A stretch of 64,000 nt of DNA from a bacterium (GTDB lineage: Bacteria; UBA10199; 2-02-FULL-44-16; JAAZCA01): the NCBI GenBank assembly GCA_963674695.2, contig CAXXGI010000003.1, forward strand, positions 1,013,064 through 1,077,063, given 5' to 3'. A program made the translations under genes and the position numbers. The notes under the pieces were generated by a model. The model made no database searches. It was given only the letters and a program-made list of their open reading frames with translations, and was not told the origin of the DNA. Shown piece by piece: positions 19,974-48,482 of the stretch; within the stretch, counting starts at the first letter, position 1, and each line of letters starts with the position of its first letter.

Positions 19974-20009
19974 TCGTTCGATGGTTCGTCGGTTCGATTG
20001 TTCGATGGT
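19974..20009. repeat. (GTTCGATG)-type 8-nt word array inside the hydrogenase operon spacer
   Basis: The sequence is ttcgttcgatggttcgtcggttcgattgttcgatgg, directly after the hyhG stop. Confidence 0.85.
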
Positions 20010-20796: not shown

Positions 20797-20842
20797 TGTC
20801 ATCCTGAGCGAAACACCGAAGGTGTTTCTGTCGAAGGATCTC
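20797..20842. repeat. Short palindromic element TGTCATCCTGAGCGAAACACCGAAGGTGTTTC..CGAAGGATC
   Basis: The hairpin is GAAACACC-GAA-GGTGTTTC, framed by the GTCATCCTGAGCGAA / CGAAGGATC motif. It lies between hyhS and hyhL. Confidence 0.6.
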
Positions 20843-22160: not shown

Positions 22161-22195
22161 TTCGTGAGATAGTGAGATAGCTGAATCGCAAGATG
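22158..22195. repeat. (GTGAGATAG/CTGAAT)-type word array at the hyhL stop
   Basis: The sequence is gtgattcgtgagatagtgagatagctgaatcgcaagatgg. The same words occur at 35027-35144 and 46664-46730. Confidence 0.8.
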
Positions 22196-22407: not shown

Positions 22408-24090
22408 ATGAAACACATCATTATAACACTCATCGGCATCCTCTTTCTTGCCAGCGCAACTCCGGGATTGGCCCAGGTAGCATCTTCAGCACAACTCCAG
22501 GCGCCACCCTTGAACGAGGCACGCATGGACATTCCGAGCCTGATCGACGGTGGCTTCTTCGTCAGCGCGATTCCGGTCGATATCTGCGTCGTTTCGGCGA
22601 CCACGAGCATCGTCACGCCGGCAGCGCCTAAAGCGGCCATCGCTTCACAGAGACCAACCCCGCAGCGTGCCTGTCTCCACCGCTATGCAGCGGGCATCCC
22701 ACTAGGACTCCTCTTCGATGACAACAAGAGCTTTGCTTTTGTCACACCCGCCTCGCTCGACATCGGCATCTGGGGAGCGCCTCAATCCGGACGAGAAAGC
22801 GATGCGACGACTGGCGGGAGCTACGGCGCTGATGGCGACCTCGAACGCCTGCCTGATATCATGATAACGGACGGCGTCAGCCTCAGCGCTGATGATCCTG
22901 CCGACACGACGGAACACGACGAGGAGATCGCGCTGACCATCGAAGCGATCGATCGGGACAACATTCTCGTCAACGGACAGTACTTCATCCGGACGGATGC
23001 CAACATCGATGTGAGCGATGTCGCCCGCAGCGAACTGTATGAGACGCTTCTGGGAAACGCCGATCCCTTCAACGCTGACCTGGGAGGAATCTTCGAAGCC
23101 CTCGTCTCCGAAAGTGATATCGGCATCGTCTTCAGCGAGATCGCCTTCCGTGCCTTCGACCTCGATCGCCTCCTGCTCGACCAGTTCTTCACGCGCTGGG
23201 CGATGCACGCTCGCGACTTTGGCGAATTCACTGCGGGCGATTTCGAGGGAATGTTCGGTTCCTGGCGCGGCAACGGCGGCTGGGGCATGTGGAACAGCTT
23301 CGACGACATCTTCGGCGCCGGCGGTGAAGGATTTGGGAACAGCGGCGCGGGCATGGACGGCATCGGCCGCACGCACGGCGGCTTCGGCGGCATGGGCGGA
23401 AATGGAAACGGCATGGGCTGGATGGACGACTTTGGCGCCGGCGGGAGCGCCTTCGGCCAGGGTGGCGGCTTTGCCGGCAATGCCGGCTGGATGGGCGGCG
23501 GGATGCAAAATGGCCTCGGCAACATGGGCAACTTCGGCGGCGCGAGCTGGTTCAATCGCGGCAACCCGAATGGGGGCAGACCTGCGGGATATGGGCAAGA
23601 CATGAATCGAGGAGACATGAAGGGCAAGGGCAAGGGCACGGATATCGATCTCTGCTATATTGATGAGAATGGAAAGTTTCACTCTAATAACGGCAATGTG
23701 AAAAGCGTTCAGCCAACCAAATGGGACAATAAAGGTTACATGCCGAAGCCAAAAACCAAAACAAACGCAGACGATATTCAACTGCATGAAGCTGAAGACA
23801 ACAACGATCTGCCTAAACGTGTTACCCCGTACAATCCGGCAGGCATAGGCGATAAAGTCGATGATAGCGGTCCCGGCCTCCCCTTCGCGCGAACGGATGC
23901 GACGCCCTACGAGGATGGCGGTGAAGAAGGCCCCGGCCATATCTTCACAACGGACGAGGCGACACCGTATGAGGATGGCGGAGAGGAAGGCCCCGGCCAC
24001 GTCTTCACAACGGACGAGGCGACACCGTATGAGGATGGTGGAGAGGAAGGCCCTGGCCACGTCTTCATCACCGATGAAACAGCAAACTGA
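22408..24090 (+). CDS. Secreted hypothetical protein with Gly/Met/Asn/Phe-rich low-complexity core and C-terminal 20-aa repeats
   Basis: GAGGAG RBS. The signal peptide is MKHIIITLIGILFLASATPGLAQ. About 140 aa have G/M/N/F-rich composition (GGFGGMGGNGNGMGWMDDFGAGG...). The C-terminus has 3x TDEATPYEDGGEEGPGHVFT. Confidence 0.75.
   Translation: MKHIIITLIGILFLASATPGLAQVASSAQLQAPPLNEARMDIPSLIDGGFFVSAIPVDICVVSATTSIVTPAAPKAAIASQRPTPQRACLHRYAAGIPLGLLFDDNKSFAFVTPASLDIGIWGAPQSGRESDATTGGSYGADGDLERLPDIMITDGVSLSADDPADTTEHDEEIALTIEAIDRDNILVNGQYFIRTDANIDVSDVARSELYETLLGNADPFNADLGGIFEALVSESDIGIVFSEIAFRAFDLDRLLLDQFFTRWAMHARDFGEFTAGDFEGMFGSWRGNGGWGMWNSFDDIFGAGGEGFGNSGAGMDGIGRTHGGFGGMGGNGNGMGWMDDFGAGGSAFGQGGGFAGNAGWMGGGMQNGLGNMGNFGGASWFNRGNPNGGRPAGYGQDMNRGDMKGKGKGTDIDLCYIDENGKFHSNNGNVKSVQPTKWDNKGYMPKPKTKTNADDIQLHEAEDNNDLPKRVTPYNPAGIGDKVDDSGPGLPFARTDATPYEDGGEEGPGHIFTTDEATPYEDGGEEGPGHVFTTDEATPYEDGGEEGPGHVFITDETAN
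23893..24069 (+). repeat. Three tandem 57-60-nt coding repeats
   Basis: The units are 23893-23949, 23950-24009 and 24010-24069. They are nearly identical at the DNA level, and units 2 and 3 differ only at a few third positions. Confidence 0.9.
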
Positions 24091-29555: not shown

Positions 29556-30013
29556 AAGAACCAAAACCGATCGTCATCATCGGCGTTGGAAACTTCCTGA
29601 TGGGGGATGAGGGCGCTGGCGTCCATGCGATCAAACGACTCGAGCAGGAGTCCTGGCCCGATACGGTGGAACTCATCGATGGCGGAACGCCGGGAATGAA
29701 CCTGATGTATATGATCGAAAACCGCCGACTCGCCGTTCTCATCGACTGCGCCGATTTCGGCGCCGAACCCGGTGCGATCGACGTCTTCGACCCCGACGAT
29801 CTTAAGCGCGACGAACGCAGCGAGATCAGCCTGCACGCCACGGATCTCCTCTCCGCGCTGGAACTGGCCCGCCGTCTGGGACATTACCCCGAGGCCGTGC
29901 GCATCGTCGGCATCCAGCCGAAAGCAATCGCCATGACGACGACGCTGAGCGATACGCTCACCGCAGCACTCGAAAAGCTCCCCGAAACGATTACTAAACT
30001 CATCACACTCTAG
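29552..30013 (+). CDS. [NiFe]-hydrogenase maturation endopeptidase (HycI/HoxW/HyaD family)
   Basis: 153 aa. IVIIGVGNFLMGDEGAGVHA..., DGGT..., and the ..H..D.. metal ligand pattern are typical of the family. The ATG overlaps the proA stop (ATGA). The upstream part of ORF 29054-30013 is an out-of-frame shadow of proA. Confidence 0.88.
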   Translation: MKEPKPIVIIGVGNFLMGDEGAGVHAIKRLEQESWPDTVELIDGGTPGMNLMYMIENRRLAVLIDCADFGAEPGAIDVFDPDDLKRDERSEISLHATDLLSALELARRLGHYPEAVRIVGIQPKAIAMTTTLSDTLTAALEKLPETITKLITL

Positions 30014-30164
30014 GGCGTGTCCTCATTTGACCATAACCCCTTATAACAAAAGGGGGTCTTTGTTTTTGTCATCCCCGCGCAAGCGGGGATCTCGATTGAC
30101 CCCTCATAAGCGAGATTCCCGCTTTCGCGGGAATGACACCTTACCAAATGAGGACGTGCCCTAG
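30010..30164. repeat. REP/MITE-like element, copy 2, with 20-bp terminal inverted repeats
   Basis: The outer arms are CTAGGGCGTGTCCTCATTTG (30010-30029) and CAAATGAGGACGTGCCCTAG (30145-30164), with 2 mismatches. Inside are the modules TGTCATCCCCGCGCAAGCGGGGATCTCGA and GAGATTCCCGCTTTCGCGGGAATGACA. It fills the spacer between convergent genes. Confidence 0.8.
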
Positions 30165-30169
30165 GATAA

Positions 30170-30793
30170 TCAGCTTTTCTGCTTGAGGGCGATCTTGAGA
30201 TCGGCCACGGCGGTGTTGACCGCATCGCAGACCGCGCGGGAGGAGATGGTGGCGCCGGTGATGGCGTCGATCGTGCCGCCGTCTTTCTGGACCTTCACCG
30301 GAGCCTTCTTGCCATCGAACTGCACCTGGAACCAGGGACGCAACCCCTGTTCATCCGGGCTCGTTCCGGTGAGGATCGTCCACCAGGTCTTCTTCGAGAG
30401 GATCTCATCGACCTTGTCACCGAGACCAGGCGTCTCCTTCTGATAGAGCACCTTGATCCCCTGAAGGTCGAATTGTTTGTTCACGCCGGCCATAACCTGC
30501 AAAACGCTCGAATAGCCGGTGGCGTGTCCTTCGGCGACATACCCAATGACCTCACTCCCCTTCTTCGCGATGCGATAGGTGAAGGGTTTGCCCTGTGCCG
30601 TCGCTTCTTTCACCTCGAAGTCAGTCGCCTCCGGCATCACGATTTTGAGCGCGGCCTGCGTCCGCTCGGCCTGAATCGCGAGCTTCTTCGGGAGGGTCAC
30701 CGCATAGAGCGCCGCGAGCGACGCCGCCGAGATGGCGGTGACGATCATGAGCACCAACGGAAAGCGAATCCAGTCAGGCAGTCCTTTTGCCAT
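30170..30793 (-). CDS. rnfG: Rnf electron transport complex subunit G (FMN-binding)
   Basis: N-terminal TM helix and the C-terminal FMN-attachment motif DAITGATISSRAV. ATG at 30793 (TTG at 30808 is possible). It overlaps the rnfD end. Confidence 0.9.
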   Translation of the reverse strand: MAKGLPDWIRFPLVLMIVTAISAASLAALYAVTLPKKLAIQAERTQAALKIVMPEATDFEVKEATAQGKPFTYRIAKKGSEVIGYVAEGHATGYSSVLQVMAGVNKQFDLQGIKVLYQKETPGLGDKVDEILSKKTWWTILTGTSPDEQGLRPWFQVQFDGKKAPVKVQKDGGTIDAITGATISSRAVCDAVNTAVADLKIALKQKS

Positions 30794-31838
30794 GAGAAAC
30801 AGCTCCAAAAAAGCGCGGTACGGTTATGCGATCGATCAACCAGACCGCGGTATTCATCAAGAGGATTGAATAGCAGACCCCCTCAGGGTATCCGCCGTAG
30901 AGACGAATGATCGCCACCAGCACGCCACAGCCAACTCCATAGAAGACCTGCCCCTTCGAAGTGAGGGGGCTCGTCACCATGTCGGTCGCCATGAAGAAGG
31001 CACCGAGCATCAGACCGCCGGCGAAGGCCTGCGCGACCGAACGCATGACGACCATCATCGGATCGGCCCAGAAACCGGCCTGCCAAAACCCAACGATCCG
31101 ACCGCCGTCCGATATCGGCAACAGCACGACGAGGACCATCACGGTAGCGATATAGGCAAACGGCAGGCGCCAGTTGATATAGCCCTTCCCGATGAGGTAG
31201 AGCGCACCGAGACCGAGGGCAACCACCGACGTCTCGCCGAGCGAACCCGGGACCCGCCCCAAGACCAATTCGGTGAGCGAATAGTGTTCGAAAAAGAGCG
31301 TCGGATTGGCCTTGAGCACCGCCAGCGGCGTGGCCTTCGTGACCGCATCGACGGTGAGAATATTTCCGATCCAGGGCATCTTGAGGATCGGCCACTTGGT
31401 CATGACGATCGCACCGGAATAGGCCGCGAGCAAAAAGGCGCGTCCGGCCAGCGCCGGGTTCCAGATGTTGCACCCCAGGCCACCGAAGGCATGCTTGGCA
31501 ATGCCGATCGCAAAGACCGAACCGATCACCGGAACGTACAGCGCAACGTTCGGGGGAAGACAGTAGGCCAAGAGCATCCCCGTCAGGACCGCGGAACCAT
31601 CGCCGACGGTGATGGGAACGCCGCGAAAACGTTGAATGGCCGCCTCGCTCAACACCGCTGCGAGCACGGAGACGAGCACCACGGCCAAAGCATAGAACCC
31701 GAAGTTGAGCACCGCGACGATGAGCTGCGGCACGAGCGCGATCACCACGCTCCACATGATGCGCGAAATGGAATCGGACGTGCCCAAATGCGGCGCCGGC
31801 CCGACGACCAGTTTATTTGGAAAAAGTGTCTCTGCCAT
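30774..31838 (-). CDS. rnfD: Rnf complex subunit D
   Basis: Polytopic membrane protein of the NqrB/RnfD family, with the FMN site context MATDMVTSP. ATG 31838 (MAETLFP). The 30-aa extension in the ORF track is read from the repeat array. Confidence 0.92.
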   Translation of the reverse strand: MAETLFPNKLVVGPAPHLGTSDSISRIMWSVVIALVPQLIVAVLNFGFYALAVVLVSVLAAVLSEAAIQRFRGVPITVGDGSAVLTGMLLAYCLPPNVALYVPVIGSVFAIGIAKHAFGGLGCNIWNPALAGRAFLLAAYSGAIVMTKWPILKMPWIGNILTVDAVTKATPLAVLKANPTLFFEHYSLTELVLGRVPGSLGETSVVALGLGALYLIGKGYINWRLPFAYIATVMVLVVLLPISDGGRIVGFWQAGFWADPMMVVMRSVAQAFAGGLMLGAFFMATDMVTSPLTSKGQVFYGVGCGVLVAIIRLYGGYPEGVCYSILLMNTAVWLIDRITVPRFFGAVSHGKRTA

Positions 31839-31844
31839 AAAAGT

Positions 31845-31944
31845 CCGTGACTCGTAATTCGTGACTCGTAACTGGCAACTCGAAAACCATAACCCGTGAC
31901 CCGGAAAACCTGAAATTGATTCCCTCATTACGAGTTACGAGTTA
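31845..31944. repeat. Inverted (GTGACTCG/GTAACTCG) word blocks in the rnfC-rnfD spacer
   Basis: The left block is ccgtgactcgtaattcgtgactcgtaactggcaactcg. The right block is ttacgagttacgagttacg, which is its reverse complement and includes the rnfC stop. Confidence 0.85.
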
Positions 31945-33273
31945 CGTCTTCTCTTTATGTTTCTGCTCCGCCTTCCAGGCCGCCAGTTCCGCCTTGGCGC
32001 GTTTGACATAGTGCACGATCGGCCGCTGCGACGGGCACGCAAAGGTACAGGTGCCGCACTCCATGCAGTCGAGCACGTGCAGGTGTTCATATTTTTCGAC
32101 CTCGCCCGCCTCGATCGCCGCGACCATCTCGGCGGCCATCCCGCGCAGCGGACAGACTTCGATGCATTTTCCGCAGCGCAGACAGGGCCCGGGCAGATAG
32201 CGTGGAATCTTCGTCAACGCCAGCACCCCGCTGGTCCCCTTCACCACCGGGATGTCGGGATCGGGGACGGCGATCCCCATCATCGGGCCACCGAGGATCA
32301 GCTTTTTGGTCTTCGGGCTCACGCCTTGACGCACGAGCAGATCCCGAATCGAGGTTCCCAGCGGGACGATCAGGTTGGCCGGGCGTTCGATCCCTTCGCC
32401 GGTCACCGTCACCGGACGCGCGATCAGCGGCATCGATTTCGACACCGCCTCGAAGATCGCATGCGCGGTGGCGACATTGTGAACGACAACGCCCACATCG
32501 AGCGGCAAACGCCCGGGCGGAACCTCGCGGCCGGCGAGCGCATCGATGAGCTGTTTCTCCGCGCCCTGCGGATATTTGACCGTGAGGAGCGAAACCGAAA
32601 TGCCCGCGTCATCCTTGGTCGCCGCAACCATCGCCTCATAGGCATCGGGCTTATTCGCCTCGATACCGATGATGGCGCGCTCGACCCCCAACGCCTTCAT
32701 GATGAGGCGCAGACCCGCGACGACATCGCCCGCGCGCTCGAGCATCAACCGGTGATCGCAGGTGAGATACGGCTCACACTCCACCCCATTGAGCAGGACC
32801 AGGTCGATCGGCCGATCATCAGGGGGAGAGAGTTTGACGTGCGTGGGAAAAGCCGCGCCGCCCATGCCGACGATCCCGGCATCGCGCACGATTGCCTTGA
32901 TCTGCTTCGGAGAGACATTCGTCACATCGCGCGCCTCGCCAACGCCCTCGGCCAGGCGATCCTCGCCATCGTTTTCGATGATGATGTGATCGCAGACCTT
33001 TCCGAGCGGCGTTGTGCGCTGCTCGATCGCCTTCACCTTCCCGGAGACGGAGGCATGCACCGGCACCGAGACGAAGCCATTGGCCTCGGCGATGACTTGT
33101 CCCTTGGCCACGACATCGCCGACCGCGACGATGGTCTTGGCCGGTGCCCCGATGTGCTGGGAGACGGGCAAGACCACCAGCTCCGGCGCCTCGACGCGCT
33201 CGAGCGCCATCTTCTCCGAGAGCTGCTTCATCTCGGGGGGATGCACACCACCTGTTCGAAATGTCTTCATCAT
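31942..33273 (-). CDS. rnfC: Rnf complex subunit C (NADH-binding, 2x 4Fe-4S)
   Basis: 443 aa. GMGGAAFPTHVK, CLRCGKCIEVCP and CMECGTCTFACP are typical RnfC blocks. Confidence 0.95.
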   Translation of the reverse strand: MMKTFRTGGVHPPEMKQLSEKMALERVEAPELVVLPVSQHIGAPAKTIVAVGDVVAKGQVIAEANGFVSVPVHASVSGKVKAIEQRTTPLGKVCDHIIIENDGEDRLAEGVGEARDVTNVSPKQIKAIVRDAGIVGMGGAAFPTHVKLSPPDDRPIDLVLLNGVECEPYLTCDHRLMLERAGDVVAGLRLIMKALGVERAIIGIEANKPDAYEAMVAATKDDAGISVSLLTVKYPQGAEKQLIDALAGREVPPGRLPLDVGVVVHNVATAHAIFEAVSKSMPLIARPVTVTGEGIERPANLIVPLGTSIRDLLVRQGVSPKTKKLILGGPMMGIAVPDPDIPVVKGTSGVLALTKIPRYLPGPCLRCGKCIEVCPLRGMAAEMVAAIEAGEVEKYEHLHVLDCMECGTCTFACPSQRPIVHYVKRAKAELAAWKAEQKHKEKT

Positions 33274-33283
33274 AAGACCACTA

Positions 33284-33366
33284 TTCGTGAACCGTAAACC
33301 GTGAACCGTGAACAGTAAGCAAAATCGTGTTAATCTTCACCGTTCACCGTTCACCGTTTTCACCGG
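33284..33366. repeat. Inverted (GTGAACCG)/(CACCGTTC) word blocks in the rnfB-rnfC spacer
   Basis: The sequence is ttcgtgaaccgtaaaccgtgaaccgtgaacagtaa ... cttcaccgttcaccgttcaccgttttcaccgg. The right block encodes the last residues of RnfB (PVKTVNGER). Confidence 0.85.
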
Positions 33367-34167
33367 CCATATTCCCAGCTTCTTTCGCATCGGCCGATAG
33401 TTGATAATGGTTCCGGTCGGGCACTCCTTCACACACTTCCCGCAGGAGGTGCACTTTTCATAGTCGAAGATCGCAATGTTATTCTCGATGCGCACCGCAT
33501 CAAATGGGCAGACCTTCTCGCACTTCTTGCAGCCGATGCACCCGACCGCACAGGCCTTGCGCGTGACCGCGCCCTTATCACGAGAGACGCAGCGCACATG
33601 GACGAGCTTGCCCAGGGGGATCAAGTCGAAGAGTCCCTTCGGGCACGCCTTCACACACTTCCCGCACGCGGTGCACTTGGCCTCATCGACGACCGGAAAC
33701 CCATCGACCATGTGCAAGGCATCGAAGGGACAGACATCCGCGCAATCGCCAAATCCGATACAGCCGTAGGTGCAGAGCTTCGGCCCGCCCTGAAGGAGGT
33801 TCGCGGCAAAGCAGGTGCGCACGCCCTCATAGATATAGCGATCCTCGACATCGCGCCCGTTGCAATGCAGCACGGCAACCTCTTTATCCGTCTGCGCCGC
33901 CTCCACGCCCATCACATCGGCGATGAGGTCTGCCACGCTCTGCCCACCCGGAATGCAGGCGGTCACCTCAGCCGAGCCGTGAACGATCGCCTTCGCGAGC
34001 GCCCCGCATCCGCCCAGACCACACGCGCCGCAGTTCGACCCGGGCAGCGCATGCTCGATGCGAGAGATGCGCGCGTCGATGTGCACGCGAAAGACGCGCG
34101 AAGCGACATAGAGCCCCAACCCAAAGAGGAGCCCCAAAAAACCCAGAATGAGAAGCGGTGGGAACAT
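33337..34167 (-). CDS. rnfB: Rnf complex subunit B (polyferredoxin)
   Basis: ATG 34167 (MFPPLLILGFLG.. TM helix). It has the CGACGLGGCGA cluster followed by several CxxCxxCxxxCP motifs. The ORF-track N-terminus (..SYESRVTSHELRVTSYELRVTSHELRVT..) is a translated repeat array. Confidence 0.92.
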   Translation of the reverse strand: MFPPLLILGFLGLLFGLGLYVASRVFRVHIDARISRIEHALPGSNCGACGLGGCGALAKAIVHGSAEVTACIPGGQSVADLIADVMGVEAAQTDKEVAVLHCNGRDVEDRYIYEGVRTCFAANLLQGGPKLCTYGCIGFGDCADVCPFDALHMVDGFPVVDEAKCTACGKCVKACPKGLFDLIPLGKLVHVRCVSRDKGAVTRKACAVGCIGCKKCEKVCPFDAVRIENNIAIFDYEKCTSCGKCVKECPTGTIINYRPMRKKLGIWPVKTVNGER

Positions 34168-34173
34168 AAAATC

Positions 34174-34261
34174 CGTAACTCGTAACTCGTGACTCGTAAC
34201 TCGTAACTCGTAACTCGTGACTCGTAACTCGTGACTCGTGACTCGTGACTCGTAACTCGTA
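34174..34261. repeat. 11 tandem 8-nt units (CGTAACTC / GTGACTC)
   Basis: 88 nt of alternating gtaactc/gtgactc words lie immediately upstream of the rnfB start. Confidence 0.92.
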
Positions 34262-34275
34262 AAACCGAAGATCGT

Positions 34276-34353
34276 GTCGCCGCGAGGGGGAATCATCTGC
34301 GTCTGGAACAAGCTTCATCTGTGAAGATGCAGATGATTCCCCCGGAAGGCGAC
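34276..34353. repeat. Palindromic element, copy c of the CGTCTGGAACAAGCTTCATCT hairpin family
   Basis: GTCGCC..GGGGGAATCATCTGC-[GTCTGGAACAAGCTTCATCTGTGAAGAT]-GCAGATGATTCCCCC..GGCGAC. The stem differences from copy b are compensated on both arms. Confidence 0.85.
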
Positions 34354-34364
34354 CTGGTCGCTTG

Positions 34365-35015
34365 TCATTCGTGTCCCAGGCCGGCAAAGCCCATGAAGGC
34401 CAGCGCCATGAGCGCCGCACAGATAAAGGCAATCGGTGCTCCCTTGAGCGCCGGCGGAACATCCGTTCGGTCGAGCCGCTCACGGATGCCGCTCATGAGG
34501 AGAATCACCAGCATAAAGCCAGCGCCCCCGCCGAACCCCTGCAACACGGTCTTGGCAAAGCTCTCGCCCGGATCGTGCAGCATGCCGAAATCTTTAATAT
34601 TCAAAAGCGCCACGCCCATCACGGCGCAGTTGGTCGTAATCAGCGGCAAGTAAATCCCAAGCGCATCGTAGAGCGGCGGGACAACCTTCATGAGAAACAT
34701 TTCGACGAGCTGCACGAGCGTCGCAATCACCAGGATGAAGACGACGGTCGTCAGGAACGTATAGTCGTGTGAGGCGACGTCGCCGCCGAACCAACGAAAG
34801 AAGAGGTTCGACTCGGTCGGGGCGAGCAACCAGTGGTTGACCACCCACGTCACGGCGGAAGCCATGGTCATCACGAAGATGACCGCGGCGCCCATACCGA
34901 TCGACTGGCTGATCCGCTTCGAGACACCGATGAACGGGCACAAGCCCAAAAACTTCGCGAGGACGAAGTTATTGACCAGGACGATCGAGATAAAGAGAAG
35001 GATGTAGTCGCTCAT
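34365..35015 (-). CDS. rnfA: Rnf complex subunit A
   Basis: MSDYILLFISIVLVNNFVLAKFLGLCPFIGVSK is almost the canonical RnfA/NqrE N-terminus. It is 216 aa and polytopic. Confidence 0.95.
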   Translation of the reverse strand: MSDYILLFISIVLVNNFVLAKFLGLCPFIGVSKRISQSIGMGAAVIFVMTMASAVTWVVNHWLLAPTESNLFFRWFGGDVASHDYTFLTTVVFILVIATLVQLVEMFLMKVVPPLYDALGIYLPLITTNCAVMGVALLNIKDFGMLHDPGESFAKTVLQGFGGGAGFMLVILLMSGIRERLDRTDVPPALKGAPIAFICAALMALAFMGFAGLGHE

Positions 35016-35026
35016 ATGTTCGTTAG

Positions 35027-35144
35027 ATCGTGAGATAGCTAAATAGCTTGATCGCTTAATCGTTCGTGAGATCGTGAGATCGCTAAATGGTGAGATGGCT
35101 AAAACCTATTTATGATCGAGCTATCTCACGATTGAGCCATTCAG
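35027..35144. repeat. Inverted (GTGAGATAGCT / GCTAAATGG) word blocks in the rnfE-rnfA spacer
   Basis: The sequence is cgtgagatagctaaatagc..cgtgagatcgtgagatcgctaaatggtgagatggctaaa ... gagctatctcacgattgagccattcagctattcagc. The right part is the reverse complement of the left words. Confidence 0.85.
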
Positions 35145-35786
35145 CTATTCAGCCAGCAGTGCCAATGACTTGACGCGCTGCGCCTCCTGCTTGCGTGTGC
35201 GCCACCAGTTGATGAATCCGATGATCAGCCCGATCACGACGAACGCGCCCGGTGCCATCACCATGACCGCCGCGGGTTCAATGGTTCCGCCTGGGGAATA
35301 GAAGCTCCCGATCGTAATACCCCAAATCCGCCCGGAGCCGGTCACCTCTCGAATGAACGAGATGATGAGCAGCGCTATCGTAAATCCCGCGCCCATGCCG
35401 AGGGCATCGAGAATCGATGGCAAAAACCGATTGCGCGAAGCGAATGCCTCGGCGCGCCCCAAAATGATGCAGTTGACGACGATGAGCGGGATGAAGATGC
35501 CCAGCGAATCACCCAGCGCGGGGAGATAGGCCGCCATCACCATCTCGACGATCGAAACAAATGTCGCAATCACGACGATAAAACAGGGGATGCGAATCTT
35601 CGAGGGGATGAAGCGATTGGTGAGCGAAATGATGCTGTTCGATCCCAACAGGACGAAGGTCGCCGCGACCCCCATGCCGACGGCATTTTGCAGCGAGACC
35701 GAAACGGCCAAAAAGGGACAGAGCCCCAGCATCAGGACGAAGATGGGATTTTCCCGGAAGAGGCCTTTTGCAAATTCACGCAGCAT
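35145..35786 (-). CDS. rnfE: Rnf complex subunit E
   Basis: ATG 35786 (MLREFAKGLFRENPIFVLMLGLCPFLAVS). It belongs to the RnfE/NqrD family and is polytopic. Confidence 0.92.
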   Translation of the reverse strand: MLREFAKGLFRENPIFVLMLGLCPFLAVSVSLQNAVGMGVAATFVLLGSNSIISLTNRFIPSKIRIPCFIVVIATFVSIVEMVMAAYLPALGDSLGIFIPLIVVNCIILGRAEAFASRNRFLPSILDALGMGAGFTIALLIISFIREVTGSGRIWGITIGSFYSPGGTIEPAAVMVMAPGAFVVIGLIIGFINWWRTRKQEAQRVKSLALLAE

Positions 35787-35870
35787 CGTTGTCCTGCTTC
35801 TTCTGTTCGAGGAGATGGACTGAAATTCCCCTGAATGAGGCATGCGGTATTACAGGAATGACGATGGATA

Positions 35871-36938
35871 TCAAGTACTTTCCGGGATTTTCGGGCCGGA
35901 ACCAAACAGGTGCACGCGATCGGCCCAGTCCTTTGTGAACGTGAGCTTGGGCATGAGGTCAGGCGAAACCCAGACTTCCATGCCTGTTTCCGTCTGCTCG
36001 ATGAGGACCGCCTCAAACCCCGAAAGCCGCTGCACGATTTCAACTCCCTTGTGCAACCCCAGGACCATCACCGCCGTGGCCAGCGCATCGGCATCGGCGC
36101 CGTTGCCGCCCACGATCGTGGCGCTGAGCAGATGATTCGACACCGGCCGCCCCGTTCGCGGATCGATGATATGCGGATAGCGTTTCCCCTCGATCTCGGA
36201 ATAGCGACGATAGGTTCCAGAGGTGACCACCGCCCCCCCATCGATCGTGACCCGCGCGACGAGCGCATTCCCCTCCTGTGTCGGGTCCTGAATGCCGAAG
36301 GCAAACGACTCGCTGCCGAAGGCATAGGCATCGCCGCCAGCCTCGATCAACCCCCCCGCAACGCCGCGATCCTTGAGGACGGCTATCGCCGCATCGACGA
36401 TAAACCCCTTGGCGATCGCGCCGAAATCGAGCGACATCCCCTTGTGGGGCAAGAGGATCTTACCGCTGTTGCTCACAAGCACGTGTTTCATCCCGACGAG
36501 CTCTCGCGCCTGCGCAATGGCCACATCGGAGGGAAGCACCTGGGTCTTGGCCGCTTCTTTCCAGAGTTCGACGAGCGGTCCAATTGTCGGATCGAACGCC
36601 CCATCGCTCTCCGACGACCAGTGCCTCGAGAGCACGACCATGCGCTCCATCGTGGCACTCATGGCCATCGGCGCCCCGCCCGCATCGGCGTTGATGCGGC
36701 TGATCTCACTCGTCTCGCGATGCCGATCGAAGACCTTCTCCAACTCGGCCACGCGCGCCTCGACCGCGCTCACATCCTCGTCGAACTCGAAGAGATTGCG
36801 CCCATAGACCACGATCTTCGTGGGAATGCCCCCCATGGGATAGATCGTCGCATCATACCGCCGCGGCCGCAAAACGATGATCGCCGCCGCAATGACAACG
36901 ACCACCACGAGAATGATGAAGGTCTTGAGATGTTTCAT
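35871..36938 (-). CDS. apbE: FAD:protein FMN transferase (canonical ApbE)
   Basis: N-terminal TM anchor. Canonical motifs are present: YPMGG, GAFDPTIGPLVELW, LDFGAIAKGFIVD, TSGTYRRY, HIIDPRTGRP. It is the first gene of the rnf operon. Confidence 0.93.
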   Translation of the reverse strand: MKHLKTFIILVVVVVIAAAIIVLRPRRYDATIYPMGGIPTKIVVYGRNLFEFDEDVSAVEARVAELEKVFDRHRETSEISRINADAGGAPMAMSATMERMVVLSRHWSSESDGAFDPTIGPLVELWKEAAKTQVLPSDVAIAQARELVGMKHVLVSNSGKILLPHKGMSLDFGAIAKGFIVDAAIAVLKDRGVAGGLIEAGGDAYAFGSESFAFGIQDPTQEGNALVARVTIDGGAVVTSGTYRRYSEIEGKRYPHIIDPRTGRPVSNHLLSATIVGGNGADADALATAVMVLGLHKGVEIVQRLSGFEAVLIEQTETGMEVWVSPDLMPKLTFTKDWADRVHLFGSGPKIPEST

Positions 36939-36953
36939 GATTCCTCCGAAAAT

Positions 36954-36987
36954 CCGTGACTCGTGACTCGTGACTCGTGACTCGTAA
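36954..36987. repeat. (GTGACTCG)x4 word array upstream of apbE
   Basis: The sequence is ccgtgactcgtgactcgtgactcgtgactcgtaag, starting 16 nt upstream of the apbE ATG. Confidence 0.9.
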
Positions 36988-37496: not shown

Positions 37497-37531
37497 GTTC
37501 GATGGTTCGATAGTTCGTCGGTTCGATGGTT
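37497..37531. repeat. (GTTCGATG)-type word array after hypA
   Basis: The sequence is gttcgatggttcgatagttcgtcggttcgatggtt, beginning 5 nt after the hypA stop. Confidence 0.85.
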
Positions 37532-37541
37532 TTCGTACCGT

Positions 37542-37741
37542 ATCGCTGCGCACGGGGAGGGGGTGTGTGCATGGCGACGTTATGACCGGAGCCGTATGAC
37601 GAACAAAAAGAGCGACTGGGTTCGCGAATTGCGAGCCGAAAACGAAGGATCCGCAATTCGCGTTTTTGAACCCAGCGCTCTTTTCGTGAGGAATAGGCGG
37701 AGGGAAGGCGCAGCACACACCCCCTCCCCGTGCGCAGCGAT
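37542..37741. mobile_element. 200-bp MITE-like / structured element with perfect 29-bp terminal inverted repeats
   Basis: ATCGCTGCGCACGGGGAGGGGGTGTGTGC (37542-37570) pairs with GCACACACCCCCTCCCCGTGCGCAGCGAT (37713-37741). An inner imperfect palindrome is AAAAGAGCGACTGGGTTCGCGAATTGCG / CGCAATTCGCGTTTTTGAACCCAGCGCTCTTTT. CCGT is found on both outer flanks. There is no coding capacity. Confidence 0.6.
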
Positions 37742-37891
37742 GCCGTGCAGGGCGTGCAAGCGGAGCGGACGCGCACAGATGAGGCCTGCCAACCGCTTGA
37801 ATCTCTTGCTGATCTCCAACTCTTCCGCGGTAATTCACCAGCCGAGGAACACCTTGACAGATGCCGTGTTCGGCCCGTAGAGTCGCGCCCC

Positions 37892-40267
37892 ATGAGCATT
37901 TGCGGCCGAAACCAGATTGTTGTCACGGGCACCGTCCAGGGGGTCGGGTTTCGTCCGTTTATCGCGCGGACCGCAACGACACTTGGGCTCGCAGGCTTTG
38001 TGACCAACACCCCTGAGGGCGTGCAGATCGAGGTTCAGGGGCCACCTGAACGGCTGGAGGCATTCCTCGAAGCGCTGCGCCAATCGCCGCCGCCGCTGGC
38101 GCGCATCCAATCGATCGAGAGCAAATCGATTGCGATCCTCGACGAAGCGAGTTTCGTCATCGCCCCCAGCCGATCCGGAGCGGGGACCACCACGATGATC
38201 TCGCCCGACATTGCCCCGTGCGCCGCCTGTGCCGCCGAACTGCTCGACCCGCAGGATCGACGCCATCGCTACCCCTTCATCAACTGCACCGATTGCGGCC
38301 CGCGCTATTCCATCATCCAGGGCCTGCCCTATGACCGCCCGCAGACGACCATGAAGCCCTTTGCGATGTGCGAGGCCTGCGCGACCGAATATGCCGACCC
38401 GACCGATCGTCGGTTTCACGCGCAGCCGGATGCGTGTGAGACGTGTGGACCGAAGATCTCCTTCGTGGTCTCGCAAGATCGTGGTCTCGTGGTCTCGCAC
38501 GACCCCCTTCATGATACCATCGCAGCGCTCGACGAAGGAGCGATCGTTGCGATCAAGGGGGTGGGCGGTTTTCACCTGGCCTGTGATGCACAGAGCGATG
38601 CGGCTGTATGCGAACTGCGTCGCCGCAAACGGCGGGATGAGAAGCCCTTCGCCCTGATGGTGAAAGACCTCGATGCCGCACGCGCCATTTGTCACGTCGA
38701 TGAAACCGAGGCGCAACTGCTGACATCGCCCGAGCGACCGATTGTCCTGCTGCGCAAACGCGACGCCATCCCGGTCGCGCAATCGGTCGCGCCCGGCAAC
38801 CAGAGACTCGGCGTCATGCTTCCCTCCTCCCCCCTGCATCACCTGCTTTTTCACGGGTCACGAGTTACGAGTTACGAGTCACGGATTTTCGTCATGACCA
38901 GCGCCAACATCTCCGATGAGCCGATCGTTCACACCAACGATGAGGCGTGCAGCAAACTGGCCGACATCGCCGATGCGTTTCTCATGCACGACCGCGACAT
39001 CCACGTCCGCATCGACGATTCGATCGCGCGCACGATGAATGGCCGTGCCCTCCTGATGCGTCGCGCACGCGGGTTCGTCCCCGCGCCCATACGGATGAAA
39101 CGCCCGATGCCGCCGATCCTCGCCACCGGCGCCGATCTCAAGGGGGCCATCTGCGTCACGCGCGGCCACAACGCGATCCTCTCGCAACACCTGGGCGACC
39201 TACAAAACGCCGAGGCCCATCGCGGATTCGAAGAAACGGTGGAGCACCTCACCACGCTCTTCGCGGTCCGTCCGGAGATCATCGCCTGCGACCTGCACCC
39301 CGATTATTTCAGCACCCGCTTCGCTGAAACGATCTCACGCTCTCTCGATCTTACGAAACCACGAGACCACGAGACCACGATCTCACGAGTACAACACCAC
39401 CACGCCCATATCGCCAGCTGCATGGCGGAGAACGATCTGCCCAACGAACCGGTCATCGGAATCGCGCTCGATGGCACCGGTTTTGGCACCGATGGCACCA
39501 TCTGGGGGGGCGAGCTGCTCATCGCCGACTACGAGGGGTTCACCCGCGCAGCGCGTTTCAAACCCGTGCCGATGCCGGGCGGCGATGCCGCTGCACGCGA
39601 ACCCTGGCGCATGGCGCTGGCGTACCTTCGGACCACGGACCATGGACCATGGACCAAAAACCAAAACCTCTTCCCATCGGTTCCGCGGGAGAAGATCGAC
39701 CTCGTTCGACAGGTGCTCGAGAAACGCATCAACTGCCCGATGACGTCGAGCTGCGGACGACTTTTCGATGCGATAGCCGCGCTCATCGGCCTGCGCACCG
39801 TGAACACGTTCGAGGGACAGGCCGCCATGGAGCTGGAACAAATTGCCGCGGATCATTGTGATGAAGCATACCCGTATACGATTGAGACACGAGACTCGAG
39901 ACACGAGACTCGAGACCACCCCCCTCTTCAGATAGGCTTTGAGAGAATGATCGAGCAGATCGTCAATGACGCGGTCGCAGGCATATCGCCATCGATCATC
40001 AGCGCCCGCTTCCACAACACCCTCATCGAGACCATCTCCGACGCTTGTCGCCGTATCCGTTCACGGTTCACGGTTCACGGTTCACGAGTGTGCCTCTCCG
40101 GCGGCTGTTTTCAAAACGCGTGCCTTGCGGAGGGACTCAAGAAAAAGCTTGTGGATCAAGGATTTACCGTCTATACGCATGCGCTCGTTCCGCCCAATGA
40201 CGGCGGCATCGCCCTGGGCCAGACCATCGTCGCGGCCCACCGGGCAGAGAGGCAGCAACGACCATGA
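37892..40267 (+). CDS. hypF: Carbamoyltransferase HypF
   Basis: Acylphosphatase domain (VTGTVQGVGFRPF), four CxxC Zn-finger pairs, YrdC-like block (IVAIKGVGGFHLACDA), and Kae1-like block (VQHHHAH, LSGGCFQN). ATG at 37892. It contains six repeat-word insertions (see findings). Confidence 0.95.
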   Translation: MSICGRNQIVVTGTVQGVGFRPFIARTATTLGLAGFVTNTPEGVQIEVQGPPERLEAFLEALRQSPPPLARIQSIESKSIAILDEASFVIAPSRSGAGTTTMISPDIAPCAACAAELLDPQDRRHRYPFINCTDCGPRYSIIQGLPYDRPQTTMKPFAMCEACATEYADPTDRRFHAQPDACETCGPKISFVVSQDRGLVVSHDPLHDTIAALDEGAIVAIKGVGGFHLACDAQSDAAVCELRRRKRRDEKPFALMVKDLDAARAICHVDETEAQLLTSPERPIVLLRKRDAIPVAQSVAPGNQRLGVMLPSSPLHHLLFHGSRVTSYESRIFVMTSANISDEPIVHTNDEACSKLADIADAFLMHDRDIHVRIDDSIARTMNGRALLMRRARGFVPAPIRMKRPMPPILATGADLKGAICVTRGHNAILSQHLGDLQNAEAHRGFEETVEHLTTLFAVRPEIIACDLHPDYFSTRFAETISRSLDLTKPRDHETTISRVQHHHAHIASCMAENDLPNEPVIGIALDGTGFGTDGTIWGGELLIADYEGFTRAARFKPVPMPGGDAAAREPWRMALAYLRTTDHGPWTKNQNLFPSVPREKIDLVRQVLEKRINCPMTSSCGRLFDAIAALIGLRTVNTFEGQAAMELEQIAADHCDEAYPYTIETRDSRHETRDHPPLQIGFERMIEQIVNDAVAGISPSIISARFHNTLIETISDACRRIRSRFTVHGSRVCLSGGCFQNACLAEGLKKKLVDQGFTVYTHALVPPNDGGIALGQTIVAAHRAERQQRP

Positions 40268-40752: not shown

Positions 40753-40983
40753 ATGTGCCTGGCCGTACCCATGCAGATCACTGAAATCTCCGGCGACACG
40801 GCAACCGTGAACGTCTCGGGACTGAGCCAGTCGGCAAACGTCTCGCTCATCGACACCCCTGCCATCGGCGATTACGTCCTCATCCATGCGGGATTTGCCA
40901 TCCAACGCATCGATGAAGACGAGGCGTTCAAGACGGCCGAGTTGCTCAATAAGATGGCCTCATTCGTAAACGGTGAACAGTAA
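40753..40983 (+). CDS. hypC: Hydrogenase assembly chaperone HypC
   Basis: MCLAVPMQI N-terminus (essential Cys2). Length is 76 aa. Confidence 0.93.
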   Translation: MCLAVPMQITEISGDTATVNVSGLSQSANVSLIDTPAIGDYVLIHAGFAIQRIDEDEAFKTAELLNKMASFVNGEQ

Positions 40984-40987
40984 ACAG

Positions 40988-41048
40988 TTCACGGTTCACA
41001 GTTCACGGTTCACGGTTCACAGTTCACGGTTCACAGTTCACGGTTCAC
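40988..41048. repeat. (TTCACGGT/TTCACAGT) 8-nt word array, about 7.5 units, in the hypC-hypD spacer
   Basis: The sequence is ttcacggttcacagttcacggttcacggttcacagttcacggttcacagttcacggttcac, ending 2 nt before the hypD ATG. The ORF-track N-terminus of hypD (FTVHSSRFTVHSSRFTVHGS) is its translation. Confidence 0.9.
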
Positions 41049-41050: not shown

Positions 41051-42136
41051 ATGAAATACATCACCGAATATCGCGACCGCAATCACGCCAAGGCCCTGGT
41101 CGAAGCGATTGCGCGCGCGGCGAATGATCGTCCCATGACCTTCATGGAGGTCTGCGGCACGCACACGATGTCGCTCGGGCGCTTCGGCATCCGCGAATTG
41201 CTTCCGGAAAACATCCGGCTGATCTCGGGGCCGGGCTGCCCCGTATGCGTCACCCCCAACGCCTATCTCGACCATGCCATCGCGCTGGCGCGCCAGCCAA
41301 AGACGACCATCTGCACCTTCGGCGACATGATGCGCGTGCCCGGCTCCACCTCGAGCCTCGAAAAGGAGCGAAGCCAAGGGGCGGACATCCGTATCGTCTT
41401 CTCGACGCTCGATGCGCTGGCCATTGCGCGCGAACATCCCGATCGACAGATCGTCTTCCTCGGCGTCGGATTCGAAACGACCGCCCCCACGGTCGCCACG
41501 GCGATCAAGACGGCCGCCAACGAGAGGATCCCCAACTTCTCCGTCCTGTGCGCGCACAAGCTGGTCATGCCGGCACTCGAAGCGCTGCTGGCCGGAGAGG
41601 TTCAGCTCGACGGTTTTCTCCTTCCGGGACATGTGAGCGCCATCATCGGCGCGAAGGCCTACCGTCCACTTCTCTCACGCCACCGTATCGCCGGCGCCAT
41701 CGCCGGTTTTGAACCGACCGACATCCTCGAAGCCCTCTTCGAGCTGATTGGGCAGATCACCCATGACGATCCGAAGCTGACGACCGCATACGTGCGCGCC
41801 GTCACCGAGGAGGGCAACCAGCGCGCACGTGCCCTGATGGAGGAGATCTTCGAACCAACCGATGCCGAATGGCGCGGCCTGGGAACGATTCCCGCAAGTG
41901 GCCTAAACATCCGAAAACGTTATTCATCCTTCGATGCGGCAGAGCGTTTCACGATCGAAGTCGAACCGATGCGCGAACCGAAGGGGTGCCGCTGCGGCGA
42001 GATCCTGCAGGGCCGAATTGCGCCAACAGACTGCCCCCTCTTTGGAAAGAATTGCACGCCGACGCATCCGGTGGGTGCCTGCATGGTCTCCAGCGAAGGA
42101 ACGTGTGCGGCGTATTATAAATACCGTGACGCGTAA
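41051..42136 (+). CDS. hypD: Hydrogenase maturation protein HypD
   Basis: MKYITEYRD start. It has the CGTH, GPGCPVCV and GFETT motifs and a C-terminal Cys-rich FeS region. Length is 361 aa. Confidence 0.95.
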   Translation: MKYITEYRDRNHAKALVEAIARAANDRPMTFMEVCGTHTMSLGRFGIRELLPENIRLISGPGCPVCVTPNAYLDHAIALARQPKTTICTFGDMMRVPGSTSSLEKERSQGADIRIVFSTLDALAIAREHPDRQIVFLGVGFETTAPTVATAIKTAANERIPNFSVLCAHKLVMPALEALLAGEVQLDGFLLPGHVSAIIGAKAYRPLLSRHRIAGAIAGFEPTDILEALFELIGQITHDDPKLTTAYVRAVTEEGNQRARALMEEIFEPTDAEWRGLGTIPASGLNIRKRYSSFDAAERFTIEVEPMREPKGCRCGEILQGRIAPTDCPLFGKNCTPTHPVGACMVSSEGTCAAYYKYRDA

Positions 42137-42158
42137 CTCGTGACTCGTGACTCGTGAC
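42125..42158. repeat. (GTGACTCG) word array at the hypD stop
   Basis: The sequence is cgtgacgcgtaactcgtgactcgtgactcgtgac and includes the hypD TAA. Confidence 0.85.
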
Positions 42159-42211
42159 ATGAAAGGACGTAAATCACACGGGCGACAATCGAAACATCAA
42201 CCCTGCCATTT

Positions 42212-42371
42212 TACCGCCATAGCAGTAATTATAGCCATTCCCATCGACACATTCCCACTTTCCATCGAAAAATAGAAATATTTACTGCTGTAGCAGTATT
42301 TTATGTTGAACACCTCATACATAAGGCGTAGACTTACGATATACACAGATATTTTTACTGCTATCGCGGCA
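42212..42371. promoter_or_regulatory. Putative HipB operators (three TACTGCT-N2-AGCAGTA-like palindromes) in an AT-rich promoter region
   Basis: The three sites are TACCGCCATAGCAGTA (42212-42227), TACTGCTGTAGCAGTA (42283-42298, 7-bp perfect arms) and TACTGCTATCGCGGCA (42356-42371). They sit upstream of the HTH gene. Confidence 0.45.
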
Positions 42372-42379
42372 AAAAAGGA

Positions 42380-42613
42380 ATGATTATGGGTAGATCTCTC
42401 GCACATCTCATACGGTCTCATCGGAAAAAGAGCGGTCTCACACAAGCCCAACTCGCAACGATGGCCGGGGTCGGCAAGACCGTCGTCTTTGATGTCGAAC
42501 ATGGCAAGAAGACGATCATATTCGCGACGATTCAGAAGATGCTCAAGGTCCTCAACATTCACCTCATCGCCCAGAGCCCGCTCGAGGGAAACGTCACCAT
42601 TGAGGAGATCTGA
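42380..42613 (+). CDS. hipB: XRE-family HTH protein, HipB-like
   Basis: LRSHRKKSGLTQAQLATMAGVGKTVVFDVEHGK is a Cro/C1-type HTH. It is 77 aa and the first gene of a three-gene module. Confidence 0.85.
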   Translation: MIMGRSLAHLIRSHRKKSGLTQAQLATMAGVGKTVVFDVEHGKKTIIFATIQKMLKVLNIHLIAQSPLEGNVTIEEI

Positions 42614-42614
42614 C

Positions 42615-42923
42615 ATGAAAAAGGCTGCCATTTTCTTTCAGGCAATCAGAGCGGGGACGTTGGAGCAACGCGACGACGGTTCATGTCGCTTCTCCTACGA
42701 ACCGTCGTATGAAGGCCAACCGATCTCACTGACGATGCCAACAGCACAGGCCCACTACGACTTCGACGCCTTCCCCCCCTTCTTCGAAGGCCTCCTCCCC
42801 GAGGGAATACAACTCGAGGCCCTGCTCAAACAACGGAAGATCGATCGCAACGACCCCTTCTCCCAGCTCGTCGCGGTAGGCGCAGATCTCGTGGGAGCTG
42901 TCACGGTCGAGGAGATCGCATGA
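42615..42923 (+). CDS. hipS: HipS-like protein (stand-alone HipA N-terminal subdomain)
   Basis: GAGGAG RBS, 102 aa. It aligns with the first ~105 aa of E. coli HipA (..FFEGLLPEG.., ..LVAVGADLVGAVTV.. vs ..FFDNLLPDS.., ..LSEIGRDSVGAVTL..). Confidence 0.8.
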   Translation: MKKAAIFFQAIRAGTLEQRDDGSCRFSYEPSYEGQPISLTMPTAQAHYDFDAFPPFFEGLLPEGIQLEALLKQRKIDRNDPFSQLVAVGADLVGAVTVEEIA

Positions 42924-43849: not shown

Positions 43850-43852
43850 TTA

Positions 43853-48307: not shown

Positions 48308-48348
48308 TTATGGAACTTGACTTTTGTCGTGCAGAGTTGATCCTTCGT

Positions 48349-48472: not shown

Positions 48473-48482
48473 GGAGGAACAC

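Follow-up and report, generated by a model that had tools for sequence, protein, structure and literature searches.

The 64,000-nt stretch of DNA analyzed here (the window: assembly GCA_963674695.2, contig CAXXGI010000003.1, positions 1,013,064-1,077,063 of the forward strand) comes from a bacterium of the lineage UBA10199 (GTDB) and contains an apbE-rnfEABCDG operon whose gene junctions are filled with tandem arrays of short words. The present analysis suggests that these rnf spacers are probably part of a genome-wide, lineage-specific population of heptamer-type arrays, generated by slippage, dispersed between loci and filtered by selection, and that any effects of their hairpins or on translational coupling are side products.

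Abundance of the Arrays

Arrays were located over the window with Tandem Repeats Finder (TRF) and with a separate strict scan, for which the chance expectation was taken from 20 second-order Markov simulations. The strict scan returns 20 arrays, compared with a mean total of 0.1 per simulation; 13 of these have a period of 7 nt, and 14 are intergenic or lie at gene edges. The density of 3.1 arrays per 10 kb is about 15 times that of 109 unrelated bacterial loci (0.20 per 10 kb, 1.69 Mb in total), while among close relatives it ranges from 0 to 3.7 per 10 kb. The 64 kb contains no fewer than eight word families that are unrelated to each other and have periods of 7, 8, or 9 nt, the words including GTRACTC, GTGAACS, GTGAGATN, GTTCGATR, ACGAGACC, TGGACCA, and CAGTCAGGC; written as RNA, array words read (GAGUCAC)n and (AUCGAACC)n. 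Copy numbers range from 2.7 to 15.5. What an earlier note on this DNA had described chiefly for the rnf operon is a window-wide population, with further sites in a sulfhydrogenase-type operon, the hyp cluster, a TPM/LemA operon, and the ahcY-etfB junction.

Arrays of the rnf Operon

The genes of the operon, whose identities NCBIfam profiles confirm, are the following.

35871-36938, minus strand: apbE
35145-35843, minus strand: rnfE
34365-35015, minus strand: rnfA
33337-34167, minus strand: rnfB
31942-33273, minus strand: rnfC
30774-31838, minus strand: rnfD
30170-30793, minus strand: rnfG

The arrays associated with them, named by their position relative to the neighboring stop or start codon, are listed below.

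36955-36985, minus strand: pre-start block 5' of apbE; TRF CGTGACT x4.4, sense (ACGAGTC)x4.4, then GGATTTTCGGAGGAATC-ATG
35119-35153, minus strand: post-stop block of rnfE-rnfA; period 8, GCTGAATR / GTGAGATA, with the rnfE stop TAG inside and stops in three frames
35030-35082 (TRF 35064-35082, period 8), minus strand: pre-start blocks of rnfE-rnfA; ATCTCACG words, pairing with 35119-35153
34174-34262, minus strand: pre-start array of rnfA-rnfB, 88 nt; TRF CGTAACT x12.7 with 92% matches, sense (ACGAGTY)x12.7 up to GGATTTT-ATG of rnfB
33336-33358, minus strand: post-stop block of rnfB-rnfC; TRF TTCACCG x3.3, sense (GGTGAAC)x3.3, stops in three frames
33286-33313, minus strand: pre-start block of rnfB-rnfC; TRF CGTGAAC x4, sense (GTTCACG)x4, 13 nt 5' of the rnfC ATG, pairing with 33336-33358
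31928-31946, minus strand: post-stop block of rnfC-rnfD; TRF TTACGAG x2.7, sense (CGTAACT)x2.7, with the rnfC TAA stop inside
31846-31882, minus strand: pre-start block of rnfC-rnfD; TRF CGTAACT-type words, sense AGTYACG-type words, then GGACTTTT-ATG of rnfD, pairing with 31928-31946

The earlier note had placed a different word array, mostly as inverted blocks with an 8-nt architecture, at every junction except apbE-rnfE and the overlapping rnfD-rnfG. That observation is partly confirmed. TRF finds an array at each of the places named, the 27-nt gap between apbE and rnfE is free of arrays, and rnfD and rnfG overlap by 20 nt. However, the word arrays associated with rnf have a period of 7 nt, rnfE-rnfA (8 nt) being the sole exception; what was given as (GTGACTCG)x4 upstream of apbE is (GTGACTC)x4.4. 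The novelty claimed for the 8-nt architecture is lost with it, since a 7-nt period typifies a class of repeats that is already known (PMC4679880, PMC4692102). Nor are the words all different, because the site 5' of apbE, rnfA-rnfB, and rnfC-rnfD reuse the GTRACTC family and share the flank AAA(A/G)TCC. A GGAYTTT tail ends four GAGTYAC arrays (36939-36954, 34168-34173, 31839-31847, and 38884-38896), 0-13 nt 5' of an ATG; these tails precede the starts of apbE, rnfB, and rnfD and the conserved Met335 within hypF.

Each spacer was folded in the mRNA sense and compared with dinucleotide shuffles (z). The paired junctions fold better than the shuffles, with z of -3.3 for rnfE-rnfA, -5.6 for rnfB-rnfC, and -3.4 for rnfC-rnfD, so that the long hairpins proposed earlier are predicted, in imperfect form, at these three. 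They are not predicted at the remaining two of the five array-bearing rnf sites, which are unstructured and fold less well than the shuffles: the block 5' of apbE is single and unpartnered (z +0.8), and the 88-nt rnfA-rnfB array is unpaired (z +2.35). Both are free of stop and start codons, the apbE block in every frame. Over the window, paired blocks have z of -3.3 to -9.2 and single blocks z above 0. As a test for RNA-level selection based on G·U pairs, sense and antisense folding were compared and found to be about equal, three junctions favoring the sense strand and four the antisense, which gives no sign of selection on mRNA structure.

Overlap of the arrays with coding ends, as well as their in-frame occurrence in hypF, had been overlooked earlier. 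The final seven codons and the TGA stop of rnfB are encoded by the array at 33336-33358 (a 21-nt overlap with the coding sequence), and the listed open reading frames of rnfB and rnfD extend through arrays. No Shine-Dalgarno sequence is present before the rnfA ATG.

Arrays Elsewhere in the Window

The corresponding features outside the rnf operon are as follows.

6504-6616, plus strand: paired blocks, (GGTTCGWY)x4-5 and (ATCGAACC)x5.1; junction 6492-6618 z -6.9
19976-20009, plus strand: single post-stop block in the sulfhydrogenase-type operon, (GTTCGATG)x4.2; z +0.6
37497-37531, plus strand: post-stop block after hypA, (GTTCGATG)x4.4
40966-41048, plus strand: hypC-hypD junction, post-stop (GTRAACR)x3 holding the hypC stop, then pre-start (GTTCACR)x8.9; z -5.1
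42125-42158, plus strand: post-stop block of hypD, (CGTGACT)x4.9, with the hypD stop inside
46668-46725, plus strand: single post-stop block after hypE, GTGAGATG words
48273-48472, plus strand: paired blocks, (GTTCGATR)x4.4 holding the upstream stop and (AACCATCG)x15.5; junction 48265-48482 z -7.9
55180-55364, minus strand: paired 9-nt blocks of ahcY-etfB, (CAGTCAGGC)x13.6 and (AGCTTGACT)x5; -117 kcal/mol, z -9.2 (55164-55369)

The pre-start array of hypC-hypD stops 2 nt short of the hypD ATG, and the 15.5-unit array is followed by GGAGGA and then by the start of a LemA-family gene. The blocks at 6504-6616 separate an ApbE-like gene from the next gene, the place of which is taken in relatives by a CxxCxxCC-domain gene. 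In the hydrogenase operon, for which the earlier note had given the same arrangement, 20797-20842 is a plain hairpin without a word array and 19976-20009 is a single block. The beginning of a post-stop block resembling that of hypE is found at 22164-22180.

Several blocks of one family resemble each other beyond the word itself. Four GTTCGATG blocks are laid out identically as composites of exactly four units, and they resemble each other in their ends and in an internal variant unit; the AAA(A/G)TCC flank accompanies four of the six GTRACTC blocks of the window; and two GTGAGAT blocks have about 27 nt in common.

Between hypD and hypE the hyp cluster is split by a segment of low G+C (about 0.55) at 42137-45544, which contains a HipA-like toxin as two open reading frames, a small upstream helix-turn-helix-like open reading frame, and, on the opposite strand, an unannotated gene of 563 amino acids.

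Polarity Relative to the Genes

The orientation of the words follows the genes. In the sense strand, the G-rich GTGA/GTAA/GTTCGATRG orientation lies on or just after the stop codon, and the complementary words (GAGTCAC, GTTCACG, ATCTCACG, and ATCGAACC), an orientation free of stop and start codons, lie just before the start codon. In the four families seen in both orientations, all 19 blocks, at 12 junctions, obey this rule, which is the same on both DNA strands (rnf on the minus strand, others such as hyp on the plus strand). The sense GC skew is +0.29 in post-stop blocks and -0.13 in pre-start blocks (p=0.0035).

No frame contains a stop in 8 of 10 pre-start blocks, compared with 2 of 13 post-stop blocks (p=0.0034). 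Because the unit is 7 or 8 nt long and many post-stop words contain TGA, TAA, or TAG, three units give stops in all frames, and six of the 13 post-stop blocks have stops in all three. The stop codons of rnfB, rnfC, rnfE, hypC, hypD, and the gene at 47559-48281 are located within arrays. At array-adjacent starts a Shine-Dalgarno core is found in 2 of 10 cases, versus 25 of 42 for other genes (p=0.036).

Arrays within hypF and uvrA

Six in-frame arrays were found by TRF and the strict scan within hypF (37892-40267).

38466-38500, 38851-38883, 39345-39390, 39629-39656, 39884-39916, and 40059-40086, plus strand: arrays 1-6 of hypF

All six, with units of 7-8 nt, are in an orientation without a stop codon in the reading frame. 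They appear as insertions of 2-9 residues relative to the HypF structure PDB 3vth, and an AlphaFold model of hypF (mean predicted local distance difference test score, pLDDT, of 73) places four of the six in coil of pLDDT below 50. The copy number of in-gene arrays is low (3-4.7).

Two relatives, L081 (9120-10286; HypF 66% identical) and L082 (4548-5732), have hypF arrays at the sites used in the window, with words specific to each genome, the identities being 61-66%. At site 2 the number of units is exactly four in each of the three genomes: GGGTCAC-GAGTTAC-GAGTTAC-GAGTCAC in the window, GGGTCAC-GTGTCAC-GGGTCAC-GGGTCAC in L081, and GGTCACC x3 followed by GATCACG in L082. In the uvrA genes of relatives, heptamer-encoded insertions occupy one loop, examples being (CGGGTCA)x4.3 and a GIGDRGS-type peptide repeat. 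The uvrA of the window itself is without this loop insertion.

L115 10773-10802; L117 10736-10760; protein P0141: uvrA loop arrays, alignment A2 columns 241-283

Orthologous Junctions in Relatives

The relatives compared (loci L001, L002, L081, L082, L115, L116, and L117) are different species and not strains. The syntenic rnf operon of L081 has junctions of 0-22 nt, and its only array is a three-unit GGCTGAG at rnfB-rnfC. In L002, paired arrays of ACGAWYC words with the same polarity are present at rnfA-rnfB and rnfD-rnfG only, and L001 has 6-nt opposed blocks at rnfB-rnfC. The counterpart of the window junction 6492-6618 measures 0-4 nt in L116 and L117. At shared loci (hypF sites 2, 3, and 6 and rnfB-rnfC, in the window, L081, L082, L001, and L002) both length and word vary. 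One word recurs across loci within a genome, and orthologous arrays of different genomes use different words; some of the positions are common to the window and its relatives, but the words, the number of units, and the choice of junctions vary.

The earlier note had asked whether the spacers are conserved in related rnf operons. They are not, which means that the arrays do not represent conserved regulators of Rnf stoichiometry. An assembly artifact was also considered as the source of the arrays and is ruled out, because the reading frames are kept and the same sites recur in independent assemblies.

As for the source organism, its genome has a G+C content of 59%, and its protein clusters have single members. 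The closest RnfC relatives are 71% and 66% identical, and UvrA is 71-75% identical to proteins of metagenome-assembled genomes and 65-66% to those of Desulfuromonadales, the nearest named relatives. From these identities the organism is an uncultured, Desulfobacterota-like bacterium and not a cyanobacterium. A metagenome scan with ApbE as the query gave no match above 35% identity and thus no close relatives, and no rRNA gene lies within the 64-kb window.

Relation to Known Repeats

All of the main features described above have been reported before for members of the heptameric repeat class. Long simple-sequence repeats with units of 5-11 nt are abundant in scattered lineages, heptamers being the commonest, and polymerase slippage has been proposed as their origin (Mrazek 2007, as cited in PMC4679880). 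The arrays of the window likewise consist of head-to-tail units in this size range, in at least about three copies and above chance, at many mostly noncoding loci within 64 kb; their abundance is lineage-specific, they have a polarity relative to open reading frames, and their length and sequence vary between related genomes. However, no array word equals a named one (STRR1-3, TAACTGA, or GGGNATC), so the arrays are members of the class of heptameric long simple-sequence repeats and not of these three families.

The STRR1-3 words of the short tandemly repeated repetitive (STRR) sequences are CCCCAGT, TTGGTCA, and CAACAGT. In cyanobacteria, 7-bp STRR units form hairpins between hupS and hupL (Anabaena, Nostoc, and Lyngbya), for which transcript stabilization or translational coupling has been suggested (PMC2670836). 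The window resembles this system in its dispersed 7-bp tandem units of several word families, which are intergenic in hydrogenase and hyp operons, and in the opposed blocks predicted to give hairpins between genes that are probably cotranscribed, but the phylum and the words are different, and the G+C content here is 59%.

The GGGNATC/GGGGAYT heptamers of Xanthomonas and Nostoc are over-represented in noncoding DNA between codirectional open reading frames (Rehm et al. 2015, PMC4692102). Their G-rich strand is the coding one up to 50 bp after or over a stop and the noncoding one up to 50 bp before a start; four units are preferred, the same loci are occupied in related species with variable length and sequence, and the repeats are mostly transcribed, inverted copies being able to form stem-loops (PMC4692102). 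The polarity is the one found here, and the preference for four units recurs at hypF site 2 as well as in the GTTCGATG blocks. The differences are that the present words lack G-tracts, belong to many families instead of one, and build arrays of up to 15.5 units. G-quadruplex formation is ruled out, since no word has G-tracts, and cannot explain the polarity or the four-unit preference here.

The TAACTGA repeats of marine Beggiatoaceae, some Cyanobacteria, and Bacteroidetes (MacGregor 2015, PMC4679880) provide stops in three frames, overlap the ends of upstream open reading frames, adjoin starts usually without a Shine-Dalgarno sequence, and within open reading frames occur in the reverse, stop-free orientation only (PMC4679880). 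All four properties, with Shine-Dalgarno sequences being scarce here, are shared by the window, and TAACTCG and TGACTCG match the word at five of seven bases. In Beggiatoaceae, however, the stop-bearing orientation abuts the start, while here its stop-free complement does; there, one word is present in 2-6 copies with almost no inverted pairs, compared with several words, longer arrays, and frequent pairs here.

Origin of the Arrays and Alternative Explanations

In the origin that we favor, arrays would arise and turn over through replication slippage and would be spread or homogenized between loci by ectopic conversion or copying. Selection would mainly filter place and orientation, admitting no premature stops, no spurious starts, and only short C-terminal extensions. 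Where a spacer contains opposed blocks, these would fold into a long, imperfect hairpin that brings the stop codon and the following start region together at its base; by melting the 5' arm, a terminating ribosome would free that region. Because the terminating ribosome must open this arm, the hairpins plausibly retain the coupling of the overlapping stop/start junctions of relatives. The same hairpin could double as a barrier to 3'-exonucleases, slowing 3' decay, and the unpaired arrays would be unstructured leaders without a Shine-Dalgarno sequence. Such effects on coupling and stability would be generic by-products and not an rnf-specific device for stoichiometry.

Some observations weigh against this origin. 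Pure local slippage does not account for words that are shared within a genome and differ at orthologous loci; dispersal, conversion, or a trans-acting constraint is needed for the shared words. The common layout of the GTTCGATG blocks and the shared GTRACTC flank look like copying rather than independent growth. Cotranscription, coupling, and stabilization of the array transcripts are what we infer from the sequence, and the equal folding of sense and antisense lends no direct support to a role of the hairpins at the RNA level. The part of the genome covered is 64 kb.

The interpretation offered in the earlier note is that the hairpins are regulatory, selected in the polycistronic rnf mRNA for differential stability or translation of the subunits in the manner of repetitive extragenic palindromic (REP) sequences and bacterial interspersed mosaic elements (BIMEs). 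It is partly supported: the imperfect hairpins at the three paired rnf junctions fold well below the shuffles and lie exactly between stop and start codons, and the hupS-hupL hairpins of STRR sequences have been proposed as stabilizers or couplers (PMC2670836). Like REP, BIME, and REPIN elements, the arrays are dispersed at intergenic 3' ends or between the genes of operons, form hairpins, and belong among proposed mRNA stabilizers. However, the REPs known from enterobacteria and pseudomonads each consist of one imperfect palindrome that has a conserved head, are mobilized by a RAYT, and are strictly extragenic (PMC3116915). The units here are non-palindromic tandem words of 7-9 nt without a GTAG head, and a palindromic unit of about 20-40 nt is absent, single arrays being unstructured (z +0.8 and +2.35). 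The arrays are not strictly extragenic either, as they occur inside hypF, encode C-terminal tails and stops, and are present at unrelated genes. No gene for a RAYT (IS200/IS605-like) transposase is found among the proteins of the 64-kb window. Together with the compact L081 operon, the different junctions used in L002, the two unstructured rnf sites of five, and an antisense strand that folds as well as the sense, this makes selected regulatory hairpins an unlikely explanation.

The arrays could instead be multivalent sites for a trans-acting protein binding single-stranded RNA or DNA (S1-, Csp-, and CsrA-like proteins are candidates), forming a post-transcriptional regulon in which they replace the Shine-Dalgarno sequence of many genes, with coevolution of word and protein leading to genome dialects. 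Such a protein, already proposed for TAACTGA repeats (PMC4679880), would account for words that are shared within a genome and differ at the orthologous loci of relatives, for a TCAC(G) core that recurs clade-wide in the sense strand next to starts, for the GGAYTTT tail between GAGTYAC arrays and the ATG at four loci, and for the depletion of Shine-Dalgarno sequences at array-adjacent starts. That one protein should read all of the eight or more unrelated families, whose periods are 7, 8, or 9 nt, is nevertheless unlikely, and arrays also lie after stops in the opposite orientation, and within coding regions. We regard this explanation, with its hypothetical binder, as quite improbable.

In a broader version, to which we attach the same low probability, each genome of the clade would keep its own small vocabulary of 7-8-nt words, written and homogenized over dozens of loci, including the hypF and uvrA loops, by an active process or by coevolution with a single-strand binding protein that reads the words, and the start-proximal arrays, free of start and stop codons, would be a code for Shine-Dalgarno-independent initiation or coupling at the junctions of operons. 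If so, the arrays would not be passive, the codon-preserving ones in the hypF and uvrA loops included.

That the blocks are nonautonomous mobile elements, similar to REPINs or miniature inverted-repeat transposable elements (MITEs), copied to gene boundaries by a transposase encoded elsewhere and with the tandem structure internal to the element, is very unlikely. The similarities among the GTTCGATG, GTRACTC, and GTGAGAT blocks described above would fit such copying, as would repeats of 60-200 nt in spacers that measure 0-4 nt in relatives. But the arrays have no terminal inverted repeats or target-site duplications, their copy number varies from 2.7 to 15.5 as slippage would give, and the window encodes no transposase or RAYT. 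The four units of hypF site 2, at the same codon position in three genomes, point to vertical inheritance.

Finally, contingency loci, in which the gain or loss of one 7-nt unit would shift the hypF frame or the spacing before a gene and so act as a reversible on/off or graded switch, fit a unit length that is not a multiple of 3, arrays within hypF and directly 5' of starts, and the part played by short repeats in the phase variation of pathogens (for reviews see PMC4679880 and PMC4692102). They can be set aside almost entirely. In-gene copy numbers are low, and at hypF site 2 the number of four is conserved in three genomes; a single gene with six switches that work independently would bear a heavy mutational burden; and the genes concerned have housekeeping or metabolic roles, like those of Xanthomonas, for which phase variation was considered unlikely (PMC4692102).

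Palindromic and Other Elements

Two elements associated with the rnf operon are not word arrays.

34270-34355 (34262-34364 in a wider delimitation), minus strand: dispersed palindromic hairpin in the rnfA-rnfB spacer; fold -46.8 kcal/mol, z -5.6
30014-30169, no strand assigned: nested palindromic element of 156 nt between a convergent hycI-like gene and rnfG; fold -75.3 kcal/mol, z -7.3

The first is about 80-100 nt long; further copies lie at 16858-16931 (92% identity) and 4244-4285, and 54292-54392 is another site of the element. The loop TCTTCACAGATGAAGCTTGTTCCAGACG is conserved in both full copies (the second at 16830-16935), and by eye the two have mirrored substitutions in both stem arms. 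It has no Rfam match at the gathering score. The second corresponds to the element that had been described 3' of rnfG with a length of 155 bp, and its presence is borne out. Its inverted ends are about 17 nt long (GGCGTGTCCTCATTTG / CAAATGAGGACGTGCC), with CTAG on both sides and two internal GC hairpins, a partial copy lies at 4300-4367, and it includes a terminator-like hairpin serving the upstream plus-strand gene. This element may be a MITE.

In the hypA-hypF spacer, which is 399 nt long here versus 45 nt in L081, a 34-nt inverted repeat (37537-37746; 94% complementary, arms 142 nt apart) surrounds a second palindrome. At 16059-16188, between convergent genes, a terminator-like GC hairpin is flanked by GAAGGGT words on one side and by the opposing ACCCTTC words on the other; 3'-3' junctions can thus have opposed word blocks, too. 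A 60-nt tandem repeat (23899-24067; x2.8, 91% matches) at the 3' end of an unannotated gene of 521 amino acids gives a 20-residue protein repeat.

Across the window, Rfam returns one tRNA and nothing else at the gathering score, and in the operon only chance-level matches at E<1. Promoter-like sites are not above expectation in the window (3 versus 2.6 in shuffles), and terminator-like sites are slightly above it (12 versus 6.8±3.3), none of the latter being on the coding strand of the rnf spacers.

Implications

With this uncultured, Desulfobacterota-like lineage of high G+C content, the known class of lineage-specific heptamers gains a further group of carriers. The polarity relative to genes and the preference for four units, both described for the G-rich repeats of Xanthomonas and Nostoc, hold here for words unable to form G-quadruplexes, which weakens the quadruplex explanation and favors a coding and translational filter. 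The arrays also matter for annotation, as they supply stops and C-terminal tails, remove Shine-Dalgarno signals, and mislead callers of open reading frames, and at the hypF and uvrA loop sites they add 2-9 residues relative to homologues. Stop/start junctions that overlap in relatives are spread apart here by repeats of 60-200 nt, which amounts to a natural experiment on the tolerance of coupling.

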